Source: Escherichia phage vB_EcoS_ESCO41
Sequence record: NC_047820.1
Length of the DNA: 50,800 nucleotides
Strand: one strand, 5' to 3'
Shown: positions 546 to 47,963 of the stretch, piece after piece
How positions within the stretch are numbered: the stretch's first letter is position 1
Layout of the letters: each line of letters opens with the position of its first letter
The notes under the pieces: model-generated
Databases searched by the model: none
Seen by the model: the letters and a program-made list of their open reading frames with translations, nothing else
What the model was told of the DNA's origin: nothing
Program-made: the position numbers and the translations under genes

Positions 546-574
546 TTGACTTACGCGTTAACTCCATCCATAAT
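546..574 (+). promoter_or_regulatory. sigma70-type promoter TTGACT-N17-CATAAT upstream of the first early gene
   Basis: -35 TTGACT 546-551, 17-bp spacer, -10 CATAAT 569-574, about 40 nt before ATG 613. Confidence 0.5.
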
Positions 575-612: not shown

Positions 613-1149
613 ATGGATAAGGTGACATTGGGTGATGTGATTCGTGAGATGGTCCGCCAGGCGATTAAGTCCGACAAGAAGCTATGCGTCGTTCCGGTCC
701 GCAAGATATTCAACCTGGTCAACGGGTATGATTATCCGGATGAAATCATCGACGAGGTGACGGGGGGGATAACTAGTCCAGGTCGTGAAATCGCAGGCCT
801 GAAAAGTTCATACATCTATAACACCGCAGCAAGAATGCAGGAGCTTCGCGATATTGATATGCACGTCAAGCATCGCTTTATCTGGCTGGCGTCAGGCGAG
901 GAAACGGCAGCTCGCAAGGTTGATGGCGATGGCGCGGACAAGAACCTCCTGATCCAGCTTGAGCCAGGCGCTCTTAAGCCGACCAAGCGCAAGGCTGCCG
1001 ATATTGAGAAAGAGGTAGCCACCATTGAAAGGTTCAAGGCAAGACTACTCAAGATCACGCCGAACATTATAGACCTGCAAGGCGAACAAAAAGAAGGCGC
1101 GCTTATCGCCCTGGCTCGCTACCATGAAATGATTAAGGAGACTAACTGA
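613..1149 (+). CDS. hypothetical protein (178 aa)
   Basis: Long ORF downstream of promoter; no recognised motif. Confidence 0.55.
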   Translation: MDKVTLGDVIREMVRQAIKSDKKLCVVPVRKIFNLVNGYDYPDEIIDEVTGGITSPGREIAGLKSSYIYNTAARMQELRDIDMHVKHRFIWLASGEETAARKVDGDGADKNLLIQLEPGALKPTKRKAADIEKEVATIERFKARLLKITPNIIDLQGEQKEGALIALARYHEMIKETN

Positions 1150-1673
1150 TGTTTAATTTTGACGAAGACAAACTGACTGATGAGCAGATTATGAATATTG
1201 CTATCCAGGATGGGCTACCGCCACTGCGGGTTGCAATCAATGCTAACGGGTATCGGCATGTTCAGCACCTATGGGGTCAGCCTGATGCATCTGAAGTCTA
1301 CAGAGATGAAGCGCTGGGCGTTCTGATTAAGTTGATCAGGAAGATGGCAAGGAACGGCAAGGGAGTGGTGGGTGTCAAGTCTCTATACGAAGGCGCGCGC
1401 AAGGTTAAACCGTTCGTAGGATGCTTTGATATCATGTTGCGCATCAAGGGTGGGCTCCCCGCTCTAGAGGAAATGAATCTCACGTGCCTCATTGGAGATA
1501 AGATTTATGTCCACCCGGCTATCATTGATGAGTACTGGAAACCAAACTTCAAAACTTACGAAGGTGAGTATGCTAGTAGACTACCATACCACTTACGGTA
1601 CGGTGAGGATGAGGTGGAGGCGGCGATCGAGTTCTACCGGAAAGCTAAATCACTCCTGAATGGTGAATATTAA
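1149..1673 (+). CDS. hypothetical protein; internally deleted paralog of the 527-aa P-loop ATPase at 46380..47963 (N- and C-terminal segments only)
   Basis: MFNFDEDKL..LPPLRVAINANGYR and NGKGVVGVKSLYEGARKVKPF..TCLIGDKIY match both termini of the 527-aa protein; ATGA overlap with upstream gene. Confidence 0.6.
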   Translation: MFNFDEDKLTDEQIMNIAIQDGLPPLRVAINANGYRHVQHLWGQPDASEVYRDEALGVLIKLIRKMARNGKGVVGVKSLYEGARKVKPFVGCFDIMLRIKGGLPALEEMNLTCLIGDKIYVHPAIIDEYWKPNFKTYEGEYASRLPYHLRYGEDEVEAAIEFYRKAKSLLNGEY

Positions 1674-1888
1674 TGCTTATAAAATGCGTGTATGTAAGGC
1701 AAGCAAATCAACAAAACCTTTCAGTTGTAAATGGCGGGATATACGTAGCTAAGCCAATACCTTGTTTTAATGGCTCATACTACATCAAGGTTGATGGCAG
1801 TGAGTACATAGTAAAGACGATAGGTGAAGCCCTTATGATAAAGAGTCTGGGTATCATAATGGCTAAATTCGAAATTGTTCGCAAATAG
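1673..1888 (+). CDS. hypothetical protein (71 aa)
   Basis: TAATG overlap with upstream gene; stop TAG lies inside cassette palindrome. Confidence 0.45.
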   Translation: MLIKCVYVRQANQQNLSVVNGGIYVAKPIPCFNGSYYIKVDGSEYIVKTIGEALMIKSLGIIMAKFEIVRK

Positions 1889-10186: not shown

Positions 10187-10735
10187 GTGAGATTCAGCGA
10201 TATTTTTACATACAAAAGCGGAGAGGTTTTCTGGAATGGAAGGCCAGAAAGTGATTTTAGTAAAATGAGTGCATATCACGCGTTTAATAGGATGGTTGGC
10301 AATACTGCTGGATACCTAGATAAATCAAACGGATACTGGTATGTGTGGATTACAATTGGCGGTATTGAAAAGAAAATACCACGATCACATATTGTGTGGT
10401 GTATTCACAATAATGCAGCCATCGTTCCAAAAGGGTTTGTTATTGATCATATAAACCACGTAAGAGATGATGATAGGATAGAAAACCTTGAACTTAAAAG
10501 CTATAGAGGAAACAACAGAAACCTTTCAATATCAAAAAGGAATAAAAGCGGTTGCGTAGGTGTTACATGGTATTCTCGCGATGAAATGTGGATGGCTTGC
10601 ATAATGGGTGATGACGGAAAGAACAAAAATCTTGGCAGGTATAATGACTGGTTTGATGCGGTTTGCGCAAGGAAGAGCGCGGAGCATGAGATTGGGTATC
10701 ACACAAACCACGGCAAGGATAGCGAGAATTGCTAA
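10187..10735 (+). CDS. HNH homing endonuclease (GTG start)
   Basis: IDHINHVRDDDRIENLEL matches the HNH/AP2-type motif; paralogous to 12823 and 40179 genes. Confidence 0.75.
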   Translation: MRFSDIFTYKSGEVFWNGRPESDFSKMSAYHAFNRMVGNTAGYLDKSNGYWYVWITIGGIEKKIPRSHIVWCIHNNAAIVPKGFVIDHINHVRDDDRIENLELKSYRGNNRNLSISKRNKSGCVGVTWYSRDEMWMACIMGDDGKNKNLGRYNDWFDAVCARKSAEHEIGYHTNHGKDSENC

Positions 10736-12822: not shown

Positions 12823-13305
12823 ATGAATTTCAATGATTATTTTTATCATGTAGGAAAAGATCTCATCTGGAAAAATCCGACATCAGCAAGGGTTAAGGCT
12901 GGCGATATTGCTGGATGGAAGGATGAGGATGGATATATTTACGTTAGGATTATGGGTAGGCTAACTCCAGCCCATAGGGTAATATGGGAGATGCACCATG
13001 GCAAAATACCTGAAGGTATGGAGATTGATCATATAAACCACATCACGGATGATAACAGGATCGAAAACTTAAGGCTCGTAACCAGGCAAGAGAACTGCAA
13101 AAACGTCTCGATGAGTAAGTCAAACAAAAGCGGATTTGTCGGGGTTAGTTGGTGTAAGAGAACGAGCAAATGGTTTGCTTCAATAAGGGTGGACAAAAAG
13201 GAGCGGTTCCTTGGTAGATACGATATAAAAGATGACGCTGTGTACGCAAGAAAGGATGCAGAGACGAAATATAATTTTCACAAAAATCACGGGAGTAAAA
13301 AATGA
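12823..13305 (+). CDS. HNH homing endonuclease
   Basis: IDHINHITDDNRIENLRL motif; inserted between head genes. Confidence 0.75.
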   Translation: MNFNDYFYHVGKDLIWKNPTSARVKAGDIAGWKDEDGYIYVRIMGRLTPAHRVIWEMHHGKIPEGMEIDHINHITDDNRIENLRLVTRQENCKNVSMSKSNKSGFVGVSWCKRTSKWFASIRVDKKERFLGRYDIKDDAVYARKDAETKYNFHKNHGSKK

Positions 13306-39369: not shown

Positions 39370-40182
39370 TTGAGAAAGATTGGTAGCTTAACTCTCATGA
39401 TTCAGCTTCTTGGGCGAGGCATGCGAATTCTAAAGAAAAAGCATATAGAAATGGGGATGAAAAAAGATGATCACCTTGTTCTAGACTTCGCCGGCGCACT
39501 TGACGATATGGCCGAACTTTACTTTGACCCAATCATTGAAGAAATTCAGGCTGAGAAGTTCAAGTCCTCAAGGAAAGGTGGTGATGAGGTCCGGCAGTGC
39601 CCGCAGTGTGGATATGAGAACTCACCATTTGCTCGACGCTGTAGCAACAAGATTGATGGAAAGCGCTGTGAGCACTTTTTCAGCTTTACGGTTTGTGAAG
39701 ATATTACTGACCCACAAACAAAGTCCGTCATCAAGAAAGGTTGCGGTACTCGCAACGACATAGCAGCAAAGGTTTGTCGTGAATGCGGAGAAATGCTTAA
39801 AGACCCTAATGCTAATCTAACCGGTAAGATGTATCGTCGTGGTGATTACCTCCGAGTTTATGATTTTCAAGTTGGTTTAAGTAAGAACCAGACTGGAATA
39901 GTTGTTAAATACAACATCATGGCGCATAACGGAGAGCGGTTTAATGCTTGGGAGTTCTTTAATCCAGAATCAGACCATCGAGTTTGCAGCGTGCTTTGGA
40001 AAAATTTCTGCCTATCCCATATTGAGAATCGCACAGAAGCAGCACGAATTGCTAAACTTCGCAGCGCAAAAATGATTATGATGAACGTAGATAAATTCCG
40101 TGCTCCTGTGCAGGTAACTCACAGAAAGAATGGCAAAGGAAAGGACATAATAGCTTTTAAGAATTTTGGAGAATTATTATGA
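39370..40182 (+). CDS. SF2 helicase, C-terminal part (motif VI plus Cys-rich zinc-finger-like region); possibly a pseudogene fragment
   Basis: QLLGRGMR helicase motif VI; CPQCG..RRCSNK..CEHF and CGTRND..CRECG; frame continuous with upstream ORF if one repeat copy is removed. Confidence 0.55.
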   Translation: MRKIGSLTLMIQLLGRGMRILKKKHIEMGMKKDDHLVLDFAGALDDMAELYFDPIIEEIQAEKFKSSRKGGDEVRQCPQCGYENSPFARRCSNKIDGKRCEHFFSFTVCEDITDPQTKSVIKKGCGTRNDIAAKVCRECGEMLKDPNANLTGKMYRRGDYLRVYDFQVGLSKNQTGIVVKYNIMAHNGERFNAWEFFNPESDHRVCSVLWKNFCLSHIENRTEAARIAKLRSAKMIMMNVDKFRAPVQVTHRKNGKGKDIIAFKNFGELL

Positions 40183-40655
40183 ATTGGAATGAGTGTTTTT
40201 ACTATGACAATGGCGTTTTGAGGTGGAAAATCCGCAGGGCTAATTGCGTTAAAATTGGTGACGAGGTCGGATTTAAACACGAGAGAGAGGGTTATAGGTT
40301 TTTCTGTAGGGACAGAAAACAATACTCTACACACAGAGTAATATGGGAAATGTTTTACGGACCAATACCGAAGGGCATGGAGATAGATCACATTAATCAC
40401 GTTAGGGATGACAATAGAATAGAAAACCTTAGACTTGTAAGTAAGCAATCAAATATGGAGAACAAATCGAAATACAAGAACAACAAAAGCGGATTTACTG
40501 GAGTGAGCTTCGAAAGTAAGTCTGGTCGGTGGTCTGTGAGTGTTGGGTCAAAAAGATACGGAAGATTCGATAACATCGAGCACGCAAAAATATGCGCAAT
40601 GATAGTTAGGGCTGAACTTGGATACCACGATAACCATGGGGATTATTTCCAGTGA
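40179..40655 (+). CDS. HNH homing endonuclease
   Basis: IDHINHVRDDNRIENLRL motif; paralog of 10187 and 12823 genes. Confidence 0.75.
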   Translation: MNWNECFYYDNGVLRWKIRRANCVKIGDEVGFKHEREGYRFFCRDRKQYSTHRVIWEMFYGPIPKGMEIDHINHVRDDNRIENLRLVSKQSNMENKSKYKNNKSGFTGVSFESKSGRWSVSVGSKRYGRFDNIEHAKICAMIVRAELGYHDNHGDYFQ

Positions 40656-45864: not shown

Positions 45865-46057
45865 ATCCAAATCTTTGCACCAGCAGCAACAATTCACCTT
45901 CATTATTGCACAGTGTATGCTCATCACGACGTCCGGCACGCATGGATGAGTTAAGAATTGAAAGAAGGGCTTGATTAATCCCATCCTCACTGATGCCATT
46001 CTCAGAACTGCATCTGATTATCGCGTCGATTACAACCTGGCTTTCCGAATAACTCAT
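45863..46057 (-). CDS. hypothetical protein (64 aa); uncertain
   Basis: ORF overlapping the 3' end of the upstream gene by 56 nt; weak RBS. Confidence 0.3.
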   Translation of the reverse strand: MSYSESQVVIDAIIRCSSENGISEDGINQALLSILNSSMRAGRRDEHTLCNNEGELLLLVQRFG

Positions 46058-46376
46058 TATCGCTCATCTTCTCTATGTTCATCATCTCCCATGTATAGCT
46101 ATCGTTCTCACCGCCATAGCACCTGAAATGAAATTCAAATGGCCTTTTTTGCGCCCCTTTGGACCAGTACCAGTTGTTCACGCCGTCAAGGTATCCTTCG
46201 CCCATGCATCTTGCTATGAACTCCTTTGATGCTGATGATGCGAAGTAGCGAGGCGTAACTCCGGCAGCCTTCGCCAGTCGCTCGCACTCCCTATGCTTGT
46301 ATATGAATACCGCCAGGTGCTGACGATTGAACTTTTTATATCCTTCACAAAACCGGTACACGTCGAGCAGGAACAT
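46002..46376 (-). CDS. hypothetical protein (124 aa)
   Basis: ORF directly downstream of the ATPase gene on the minus strand. Confidence 0.45.
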   Translation of the reverse strand: MFLLDVYRFCEGYKKFNRQHLAVFIYKHRECERLAKAAGVTPRYFASSASKEFIARCMGEGYLDGVNNWYWSKGAQKRPFEFHFRCYGGENDSYTWEMMNIEKMSDNELFGKPGCNRRDNQMQF

Positions 46377-46379
46377 TGT

Positions 46380-47963
46380 TTACCCCAGCAATCTCGGATT
46401 AATGTAAATTTTATCACCAATCAGGCACGTATAGTTCTTCTCATCCAACATAGGGATTAGGTGATCCTTGATGCGAGTCATCACACCAGCTTGCCCTTCA
46501 AAGGGTTTGACCTTACGCGCAGCTTCATATAGGGATCGGACACCTACAACGCCTTTCCCGTTCTTGCCTTGCTTGATCAGTATGTCTATCAGCTTGTTCA
46601 TCTCCGCATGGTCGCCAGCGTGACCAGCGGCGTTGGCAGATGACAGATAAGTCTTACTCAGTTCCTGGAACATAATTACCGCTTCCTGCATTGTGTCAAG
46701 CTCAATCTCTCTGGACTTCTGCGGACTCCCGCCATTGGGATTAAACCAGTTACGCACAGTGTGAAGAACAGCCGCGATCCTGATAGCCTGCTTATCAAAC
46801 TTACCAAGCGCGCCGCGAAGCATTGTGTGTGAATACTTCCCGCCGTCCGCAAGGTGAGGCTCCATATCCTGACGCGCACGGTTGAGATATTTCATCGCCG
46901 ACGTGCTCACTGTCAGGTTTACTTCGTGTTCGCTCATGATCTCATGGACCAGACGGAAGTAGTCCGCCTTGAGTCCGCCATCAATCGGCTCATATGTTGA
47001 TTCGCCTTTCTCATCTACGAACACACGCTCACCAAGGAATGACTTCTCACGCACAAGCAGGAAACGCTCGGATACACCGATACCACGCGCGCCAGCGTTC
47101 ATGATCGCGTTTATCGTTTCATCCTGTGCAATTACAGAGATGCAACCCATCGCAATAAAGCTCATGTTATTGTCTGCGTTCGCACGGGCGATAGATACGT
47201 TACCAGCATCCCACGCCTTAAGCACAAGCTCGCTGTTCGTTTTCTTTGAGCCGTCACCATAGGTCATGCCTAACAGTGAGTTCACGCTCGTTGCTTCATC
47301 CGAGATAACTGCAAAGTTGCCCTGGCGGTTGTTGATTCGCGCAAGACCTTCCGGCGTGGTGTCGGATACGGGGAAAACGATGTCACAGAGTCGTTCAAGT
47401 TTTTCTTCAAGCTCCTCTTTCTCCTCAAACAGAGCCGCCATATCAGATGGTGATTTTTCCTGCTTCATCTCCTTGGATAGAGCGGAGAGCTTAGCCATAA
47501 TCTTCTTGCGGTCACGCTTTCGGATCTCGTTGAGTCGCTCAGTCTCTGCGATCATTGGGGCCAGAGAAAGTGAGTTGATGGCTGATTTACCTGTCGATGG
47601 CGGCTGACTGGTTACGACGTAAAGAGCGGTCGGCTGTTGTGTTCCGTGATACTCAACCGTAAATCGGCCCAGCATGGCGGCTGATATGCATCCGAGGAAA
47701 TGCATGTAAGCGGACGACTCTGGGAACTGAACAGAACGAGCGGCATTGCTTGACAGTTTACCAACGACATCATAATCGTTACCAAGTGAGATAACCGGAT
47801 ATTTGTCACCGCCTGAGTCAATCTCTGTTGGGGCTTTCCAGAACGACTGGCTTTGCCTGTATCCGTTCGCATTGATGGCAACGCGCAGAGGCGGGAGGTT
47901 ATCGGCGGCGGCGACAGCCATGACCTGATCGATTGACAATTTATCTTCGTTGAAATCAAACAT
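46380..47963 (-). CDS. P-loop NTPase, putative replication ATPase/helicase (SF3-like)
   Basis: Walker A SQPPSTGKSA, Walker B FAVISDEA; 527 aa; termini homologous to the 174-aa protein at 1149..1673. Confidence 0.55.
   Translation of the reverse strand: MFDFNEDKLSIDQVMAVAAADNLPPLRVAINANGYRQSQSFWKAPTEIDSGGDKYPVISLGNDYDVVGKLSSNAARSVQFPESSAYMHFLGCISAAMLGRFTVEYHGTQQPTALYVVTSQPPSTGKSAINSLSLAPMIAETERLNEIRKRDRKKIMAKLSALSKEMKQEKSPSDMAALFEEKEELEEKLERLCDIVFPVSDTTPEGLARINNRQGNFAVISDEATSVNSLLGMTYGDGSKKTNSELVLKAWDAGNVSIARANADNNMSFIAMGCISVIAQDETINAIMNAGARGIGVSERFLLVREKSFLGERVFVDEKGESTYEPIDGGLKADYFRLVHEIMSEHEVNLTVSTSAMKYLNRARQDMEPHLADGGKYSHTMLRGALGKFDKQAIRIAAVLHTVRNWFNPNGGSPQKSREIELDTMQEAVIMFQELSKTYLSSANAAGHAGDHAEMNKLIDILIKQGKNGKGVVGVRSLYEAARKVKPFEGQAGVMTRIKDHLIPMLDEKNYTCLIGDKIYINPRLLG

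Follow-up and report, generated by a model that had tools for sequence, protein, structure and literature searches.

A separate gene for a short, core-less paralog of the DUF3987 helicase in Escherichia phage vB_EcoS_ESCO41

What might a bacteriophage gain from a second gene that repeats both ends of its replicative helicase and leaves out the motor between them? This question is raised by a protein of 174 amino acids (aa) encoded near one end of the genome of Escherichia phage vB_EcoS_ESCO41 (NC_047820.1). The window analysed here, i.e. the whole stretch of 50,800 nucleotides (nt), is the complete genome of this T1-like siphovirus of the Drexlerviridae, whose nearest relatives with an annotation, XT34 and P818, are listed as Nouzillyvirus. 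An earlier note on this DNA had described the short protein as an internally deleted paralog of a 527-aa P-loop ATPase, and both open reading frames (ORFs) are present exactly as it stated, on opposite strands:

1149 to 1673, plus strand: gene of the short paralog (174 aa, HOR71_gp02, phrog_7327), an ORF with a 100% match to a named NCBI protein
46380 to 47963, minus strand: gene of the full-length paralog, a DUF3987 replicative helicase of 527 aa, assigned by Pfam, PHROG, an AlphaFold2 (AF2) model and Foldseek

The short protein and its full-length paralog

The 174-aa gene was confirmed as a genuine paralog of the P-loop ATPase which lacks the entire ATPase core. Two significant BLASTP blocks correspond to the shared first ~40 residues and the shared C-terminal block reported before: residues 1-45 of the short protein align with residues 1-45 of the long one (28/45 identical, 62%; expect value, E, 5e-18), and residues 59-126 align with residues 458-526 (42/69, 61%; E 5e-24). 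Both blocks lie in confidently predicted folded, non-low-complexity elements of both proteins (predicted local distance difference test, pLDDT, ~89-91), and the similarity is therefore not confined to low-complexity stretches, which the earlier note had named as the outcome that would speak against the paralogy. Pairwise alignment and structure prediction, which it had proposed as checks, revealed the same N-terminal helices and the same winged-helix topology in both proteins. The missing core was recognised correctly, only its size was underestimated: the helicase segment without a counterpart comprises residues ~46-457, i.e. ~410 aa and not ~350 aa, and holds the whole Pfam DUF3987 match (residues 81-430) as well as the Walker motifs A and B.

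At the DNA level, the two genes of ESCO41 resemble each other in patches only (30/35, 60/79 and 23/26), and the synonymous sites between them are saturated (proportion of synonymous differences, pS, 0.73-0.74). Saturation was found between the paralogs of all eight genomes tested (pS 0.66-1.0), which indicates that the duplication is old. Despite this saturation, the paralogs of seven of the eight genomes are 62-79% identical in the N block and 46-70% identical in the winged helix; in the eighth genome, the divergent lineage L015, the shared blocks are 59-62% identical. These values argue for an old paralogy whose similarity at the protein level has been maintained by selection. An assembly or terminal-repeat artefact could be ruled out due to the patchy DNA similarity, the synonymous saturation and the presence of both genes in the permuted records of relatives. 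A larger segmental duplication was ruled out as well, as an all-against-all BLASTP comparison of the ORFs of the window revealed no flanking genes common to both loci; no relationship exists between the sequences that precede the two start codons. The pS values, together with the occurrence of identical codons at only 26-48% of the identical residues, led to the rejection of recent gene conversion as the source of the similarity.

Judged by its family matches, the 527-aa protein is a DUF3987 replicative helicase, a type described in the literature as MCM-like (superfamily 6, SF6), with unwinding as the predicted activity. It matched PF13148 (DUF3987) over residues 81-430 (E 2.9e-39; 135.8 bits, cut-off 27) and phrog_2373, 'DNA helicase' (E 3.5e-255). 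Among 41 helicases, the Walker A residues G125, K126 and S127 and the Walker B residue E223 do not vary, and D222 hardly varies. The AF2 model (pLDDT 88; predicted template modelling score, pTM, 0.86) begins with three short helices (residues 11-41), continues with a long AAA+ region and has a winged helix at the C-terminus. Among the structures of the PDB, its best Foldseek matches are MCM subunits without exception (lowest E 1.8e-5; the template modelling score, TM, is modest at ~0.33). DUF3987 proteins are SF6, MCM-related replicative helicases which possess a C-terminal winged helix and are often paired with primases (PMC4889955). ATP-dependent unwinding has been demonstrated biochemically only for the PriCT-DUF3987 protein AgaPH, which is distant from the ESCO41 helicase; AgaPH is a 5'-3' helicase that binds its own primase (PMC11724360). 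In helicases of the MCM type, the winged helix is an appendage for regulation or partner binding; in archaeal MCM, where it is C-terminal, it influences the ATPase centre (PMC4357721). T1-like phages lack a gene for DNA polymerase and need the host replisome (PMC11447400). Within the helicase gene, the following parts were located:

47829 to 47963, minus strand: N block, aa 1-45 (BLASTP and model)
46674 to 47723, minus strand: ATPase core, Pfam DUF3987, aa 81-430, absent from the short paralog
47583 to 47609, minus strand: Walker A, within the ATPase core
47295 to 47309, minus strand: Walker B, within the ATPase core
46401 to 46613, minus strand: C-terminal winged helix, aa 451-521 (helices 451-468, 475-482 and 494-508; strands 472-474, 512-515 and 518-521)

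Directly downstream of the helicase gene lies a gene for a 124-aa protein (46002-46376, minus strand; phrog_2794, labelled 'YdbL' in phage Jk06), which holds this position next to the helicase in most relatives examined. In the record of Jk06 itself (NC_007291, 1928-3519), the helicase is annotated as three fragments (JK_52, JK_54 and JK_55), which are probably due to frameshift errors in an old record and have no biological meaning.

According to the models, the short protein consists of the two non-catalytic appendages of the helicase joined by a short linker, and it ends in an additional tail:

1149 to 1283, plus strand: N block, aa 1-45, a conserved, disordered MF(D/N)F..(D/E)KL peptide and then a module of three helices, homologous to helicase aa 1-45
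1284 to 1310, plus strand: junction or linker, aa 46-54, between the BLASTP blocks, standing in for ~410 helicase residues
1311 to 1514, plus strand: winged-helix domain, aa 55-122, homologous to the C-terminal winged helix of the helicase
1515 to 1670, plus strand: family-specific C-terminal tail, aa 123-174, ending in the conserved helix EDEVEAAIEFYRKAKSLLNGEY, with no helicase counterpart

The three helices of the N-terminal module (residues 11-21, 25-33 and 36-41) occupy the same positions in both proteins, with a pLDDT of ~89-90 in the model of the short protein. Within the short family, conservation is highest in the N block (mean majority fraction 0.76; I30, N33, G34 and W42 invariant), and the linker shows the lowest conservation of any segment (0.55). 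In both proteins, the C-terminal domain has the order helix-strand-helix-helix-strand-strand of a winged helix, and its structural neighbours are winged-helix domains. Of the tail (~50 aa), residues 127-174 lie beyond the BLASTP-aligned block, and BLASTP detected no match to it in the helicase or elsewhere in the window. Its terminal helix (residues 153-170 in the model) is conserved even among distant alleles and is lacking in natural alleles of 140 aa. The whole short protein was modelled with a pLDDT of 80.7 and a pTM of 0.69, and the independently predicted BFVD model of a 140-aa homolog superposes on it with 1.3 Å (TM 0.94 on the target). The superposition suggests that N-module and winged helix form a single compact unit.

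Over its full length, the short protein belongs to phrog_7327 (E 1.1e-78; residues 1-173 on profile positions 1-179 of 179), a family which is related to phrog_2373 only via reciprocal partial hits. No match to PF13148 was obtained even at E ≤ 1, nor to any other Pfam family; N block, winged helix and tail searched in isolation likewise gave no Pfam hit, including helix-turn-helix (HTH) and winged-helix families. Sequence searches against solved structures matched neither paralog. The short protein contains neither a Walker A (GxxxxGK[ST]) nor a Walker B (hhhhDE) motif. It thus resembles the DUF3987/SF6 helicases in that its N-terminal module and its winged helix are homologous to the N-terminal and C-terminal ends of such an enzyme of its own genome, but differs from them by the absence of the DUF3987/AAA+ region with Walker A and B and by the extra tail. 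From its sequence, it is best classified as a paralog of the helicase appendages and not as a member of the helicase family. Unlike the winged helices of MCM and ORC/Cdc6, the phage domain is free-standing and fused to the N-module of a helicase, and the sequence identity to those structures amounts to only 8-17%.

Two further observations concern these domains. In closely related short alleles, the loop that connects helices 2 and 3 of the winged helix exists in two unrelated versions, RKVKPFVGC-FDI and RRAKRIKGGNARL; this mosaicism is located at codons ~84-98 of the gene (alignment columns 85-100). In addition, a 633-aa protein of metagenomic or eukaryote-like origin (P0267) carries five tandem repeats of the type 'MTAEEALAAAEAEGLPLIRSAxSSSGYKHV...FATAEEAALTYSR' and a C-terminal DnaJ domain. 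The repeats, which were not recognised by Pfam, match the N block motif GLPPLRVAINANGYR (residues 5-38 of the short protein; E 4e-7 over five stretches).

Operon structure, gene order and occurrence in relatives

The short gene is embedded in a compact plus-strand operon:

546 to 574, plus strand: sigma-70-like promoter candidate TTGACT-17-CATAAT of the DUF7174/short operon (consensus scan, 10 of 12)
613 to 1149, plus strand: DUF7174 gene, 178 aa (Pfam PF23796, E 6.9e-44)
1135 to 1140, plus strand: Shine-Dalgarno sequence AAGGAG, 8 nt upstream of the ATG of the short gene (direct sequence reading)
1673 to 1888, plus strand: downstream ORF of 71 aa, the start of which overlaps the stop of the short gene (TAATG, 1671-1675)

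The stop codon of the DUF7174 gene overlaps the start codon of the short gene (TGATG, 1147-1151), and from this arrangement the short gene appears to be translationally coupled to the DUF7174 gene. Five metagenomic loci with called genes show the same overlap of 1 nt, as do six out of seven annotated relatives, very divergent alleles included; the one exception, TR1, has an overlap of 4 nt. The number of promoter-like sites in the region is not above chance, and in ETEP102 a promoter is annotated at the place equivalent to 546-574. For the 71-aa ORF, no Pfam or PHROG match was found. The DUF7174 gene occurs in 132 phage records, is itself highly variable (31-92% identity) and always lies directly upstream of the short gene where both occur; it is also present in phages without the short gene (Rtp, ACG-M12, L021 and L022). 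Neither the short protein nor the DUF7174 protein matched a PADLOC model at E ≤ 1.

The earlier note had suspected that the two paralogous genes, which lie at opposite ends of the window, would be close together on a circular or permuted map, and this holds true: in the permuted records of relatives they are divergent neighbours. Ten loci with both genes were compared (Jk06, AKS96 and C119 of Rogunavirus; P818 of Nouzillyvirus; BEK1-1 and 12397V of Veterinaerplatzvirus; TR1 of Christensenvirus, IME253, CEB_EC3a and one metagenomic contig). All ten show lysis genes, a small gene, the helicase gene and several small genes on one strand and, past an intergenic region of ~0.5-0.7 kb, DUF7174 followed by the short gene on the other strand, i.e. 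the order helicase operon (minus), DUF7174 (plus), short gene (plus). The start codons of the two genes are ~2.5-3.7 kb apart in BEK1-1, TR1, P818 and L015, and 3,986 bp separate the two starts in ESCO41 across the window ends. The distance from the first minus-strand gene to the 12-mer TATTGCAATGAT is 105 nt in ESCO41 and 101 nt in P818; the ends of the ESCO41 window are therefore contiguous.

The occurrence of both forms in related phages, which the earlier note had asked about, was verified. Of 417 phage records matched by tblastn, 111 contain a full-length short copy, and among the 60 records listed every one with a full-length short copy also contains the helicase. In a large protein database, 337 homologs of the short protein were found at E ≤ 0.001, with lengths of 160-187 aa among the matches listed (120 of 337). 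The family is narrow, comprising 34 representatives at the 50% clustering level. L021 and L022 show an ESCO41-like layout with helicases that are 81% and 78% identical and with DUF7174, and lack the short gene. Split copies occur in ETEP102 (37 and 139 aa) and CEB_EC3a (36 and 111 aa) and a truncated copy in 12397V (140 aa), some of which may be sequencing errors. In the split isolates (ETEP102 at 1427-1540 and 1568-1987, CEB_EC3a, and IME542 from BFVD entries), one ORF of ~36 aa encodes the N-module only and a second one of 103-139 aa the winged helix plus tail. The two pieces of ETEP102 are 81% and 48% identical to ESCO41, and the split suggests an allele recombination junction inside the short gene.

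The intergenic region is rich in repeats. Positions 1-94 of the window consist of a 47-nt tandem direct repeat in two copies, which are 72% identical; each contains CTATTGCAATGAT (8-19 and 55-66) with the palindromic core ATTGCAAT as well as inverted motifs of the type TTGC..GCAA. In the corresponding intergenic region of P818 (two copies, 47 nt apart), BEK1-1, 12397V, TR1 and ETEP102, the 12-mer TATTGCAATGAT is conserved. In TR1 it lies ~100 bp from the pac site predicted by PhageTerm (PMC10450929), and the repeat at 1-94 probably belongs to the pac region; a replication origin, considered for these repeats, was set aside because the motif lies in this pac region. An exact 16-nt direct repeat, TGTATACTGTGTAACG, is located at 208-223 and, 121 nt further on, at 329-344; the genome contains no other copy (chance expectation 0.29). 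Its copies flank a very AT-rich stretch (~270-335) with an inverted repeat of its own, and a partial inverted copy is present at 451-469; among the relatives, IME253 has two copies and ETEP102 has one. The repeat might function as an operator, a promoter or an unwinding element.

The sole other set of paralogs in the genome comprises the ORFs at 10265-10735, 12823-13305 and 40179-40655, which are 35-45% identical to each other. They are probably homing endonucleases; in XT34, an 'HNH endonuclease motif protein' is annotated about where the ORF at 40179-40655 would lie.

Allele diversity and the match to the own helicase

In comparisons with close orthologs, the ratio of nonsynonymous to synonymous substitutions (dN/dS) was 0.19-0.22 for the short gene and 0.01-0.04 for the helicase gene. 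The short gene thus appears to be under clear purifying selection, several times weaker than that on the helicase, and looks like a real and functional gene. Nevertheless, phages with helicase identities of 88-99.8% share only 38-87% identity in their short alleles. The helicases of ESCO41 and P818 are 99.8% identical and their short copies 51%; for C119 and AKS96 the values are 99.4% and 45%. The opposite discordance was found between ESCO41 and BEK1-1, with a dS of 0.38 for the short gene and of 1.24 for the helicase gene. Because the divergences of helicase and short gene disagree between phages in this way, the short locus is most probably a hot spot of allele replacement.

In spite of this diversity, short copies resemble the helicase of their own genome. 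The test of this co-variation covers one divergent lineage, L015, whose helicase is 81% and whose short allele is 35% identical to those of ESCO41; the further divergent lineages P0244, P0249, P0252 and P0253 are represented by short contigs, and the contig of P0247 ends just upstream of DUF7174 and carries no helicase. The short copy of L015 is 55-61% identical to the termini of its own helicase and 41-50% identical to those of all 29 other helicases, and for the other short alleles the L015 helicase is the poorest match among near relatives. At columns in which the helicases of ESCO41 and L015 differ, each short copy agrees with its own helicase, by 19:7 and 20:7 (Fisher's exact test, p=9e-4). 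Thirteen columns co-vary reciprocally; examples of the co-varying states are DNLP/DGLP vs QGIS/QGIS, NGYR vs NGMRY, NGKGVVGV vs AGKGFVSL and TCLIGDKIY vs VCMI(D/N)(D/N)RVY.

Both short alleles share the deletion junction within two residues, have a homologous tail and occupy an identical locus, which argues for a single origin. The simplest reading of the alignments would be a single origin followed by concerted evolution, i.e. ancient gene conversion, or by co-evolution. In a neighbour-joining tree (118 columns), monophyly of the short forms was recovered in 9 of 200 bootstraps, and alleles of the AKS96 type grouped with helicases of the host clade in 101 of 200. The tail, the coupling to DUF7174, the allelic diversity and the co-variation with the own helicase were not part of the earlier note, which was right about the paralogy.

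Possible roles of the short protein

The reading favoured here, put forward tentatively, is that the short protein may serve as a non-catalytic competitor or adaptor for the ligand of the helicase appendages. It would be made early and coupled to DUF7174, from an operon that runs away from the helicase operon, starting at the control region near pac; the early timing is presumed. It would display the same two surfaces as each helicase protomer and would bind whatever these appendages bind, be it a loading or priming partner, the motor domain of the helicase itself or DNA. The option of the motor domain has its model in archaeal MCM, in which the winged helix exerts allosteric control. As a result, loading or activity of the helicase would be tuned by stoichiometric competition or by adaptor action; both the binding and the direction of any effect on replication are inferred. 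Since the Walker motifs and the AAA+ core are missing, the short protein is predicted to be unable to hydrolyse ATP and probably cannot enter the helicase ring. The earlier note had proposed a regulator or a dominant-negative partner. The latter seems unlikely in its classical form of a poison subunit, because, as judged from the architecture of MCM and other AAA+ proteins, the core that forms the ring interfaces is lost, and competition or adaptor action via N-module and winged helix would be the form of regulation which the anatomy allows.

In favour of a competitor or adaptor, the match of the short copy to its own helicase, the conserved N block and the constant gene order were counted, and the regulation by winged helices in the MCM class and the primase-associated DUF3987 proteins were taken as precedent for a regulatory role. 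Several points weigh against it. The diversity of the short alleles is not expected for a partner of a nearly invariant helicase and is typical of conflict genes. Many of the co-varying changes are conservative (K/R, I/V, L/M); ancient gene conversion therefore fits as well as co-evolution, and co-variation alone is no proof of an interaction. The short gene appears dispensable, at least in the laboratory, and not essential for replication, because it is absent in L021 and L022 and split or truncated in several isolates. Finally, nothing was found in the literature on the short protein family or on the paralogy; in databases, the family is present only as hypothetical proteins and as a PHROG without annotation.

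A further reading is rather doubtful: the short protein might be a self-mimic, a motor-less replica of the exposed appendages of the phage's own MCM-like helicase, which is kept matched by concerted evolution or co-evolution and acts either as a licensing-type switch of helicase loading, comparable to the MCM winged helices, or as a decoy against host sensors or rival phages that target the helicase. According to a rival explanation, considered unlikely, the short gene serves in conflict and its product, by mimicking the exposed helicase appendages, occupies or blinds a host defence sensor for the replication machinery or disturbs the helicases of rival T1-like phages in an arms race. The allele swaps between nearly identical genomes, such as ESCO41 and P818 or C119 and AKS96, the discordant dS values of ESCO41 and BEK1-1, which indicate horizontal exchange, the presence/absence polymorphism with disrupted copies and the mosaic loop of the winged helix would all fit, as would the site among small, variable and uncharacterised genes of an operon starting from the pac-proximal control region. 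Core replication proteins also often trigger defence systems (bioRxiv 10.1101/2022.08.27.505566). However, a dN/dS of ~0.2 means purifying and not diversifying selection overall, the short protein matches neither a PADLOC model nor a known anti-defence family, and no defence system with a sensor for a DUF3987 helicase is known; a literature search revealed no link between the helicases of this type in Drexlerviridae and any defence system. Moreover, a mimic of a trigger might activate the sensor instead of blocking it.

The winged helix could also have been exapted as a DNA-binding regulator of transcription or packaging, independent of the helicase and maybe together with DUF7174, with the N-module as a dimerisation or accessory element. 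This is improbable, even if the domain is net basic (+7 in ESCO41, family mean +5), the gene adjoins the repeat-rich intergenic region with its 47-nt tandem repeat around a palindromic TATTGCAAT core and its exact 16-nt repeats, and the tight coupling links it to a further uncharacterised protein. Few segments vary as much as the putative recognition helix (aa 95-108), which also contains acidic residues; no HTH or winged-helix Pfam family was detected; the repeats, being located in the PhageTerm pac region of TR1 (PMC10450929), likely have a role already; and the helicase-like N block and the tracking of the own helicase would be left unexplained. That the gene is a decaying, functionless remnant of a helicase duplication is very improbable. 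Split or truncated copies in several isolates, its absence from some relatives and an evolution several times faster than that of the helicase might be taken as signs of decay, but dN/dS is ~0.2, full-length ORFs are found in more than 100 phage genomes and in several hundred metagenomic clusters, the amino acid similarity to the helicase has been retained despite synonymous saturation, the translational coupling is conserved, and the model is confidently folded.

Forms of replication and transposition proteins that consist of binding domains only are known from other systems, for example OBPC/UL8.5 beside UL9 of HSV-1, E8^E2 of papillomaviruses, small t beside large T of polyomaviruses and Inh of Tn5. 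These truncated forms arise from the same gene as the enzyme via internal starts or splicing, are identical to it in the shared part, and compete with or modulate it. The short protein is similar to them in sharing binding-domain parts with an enzyme whose catalytic domain it has lost. In contrast to them, it is encoded by a separate gene on the opposite strand and in another operon, with ~62% identity and saturated synonymous sites, and it retains both termini, is hypervariable and dispensable, and its inhibitory action is putative. A binding-domain-only relative of a replication enzyme is thus already known as a general idea. A separate, apparently ancient paralog with both termini of an MCM-like phage helicase is new, as are the tight coupling to DUF7174 and the hypervariability alongside a match to the own helicase.

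A protein consisting of the two non-catalytic appendages of a helicase alone is a ready-made probe for the ligands of these appendages. If the short protein regulates or mimics the helicase as a competitor or adaptor, the binding-domain strategy of animal viruses and transposons would extend to bacteriophages, achieved there by ancient duplication and not by alternative expression, and a role would be assigned to the uncharacterised early gene family phrog_7327 and possibly also to its constant partner DUF7174. If the gene serves in conflict, it would exemplify how a phage duplicates parts of its core machinery to this end, and if the protein is a self-mimic, a phage would be controlling or protecting its replicative helicase in a manner not described before.

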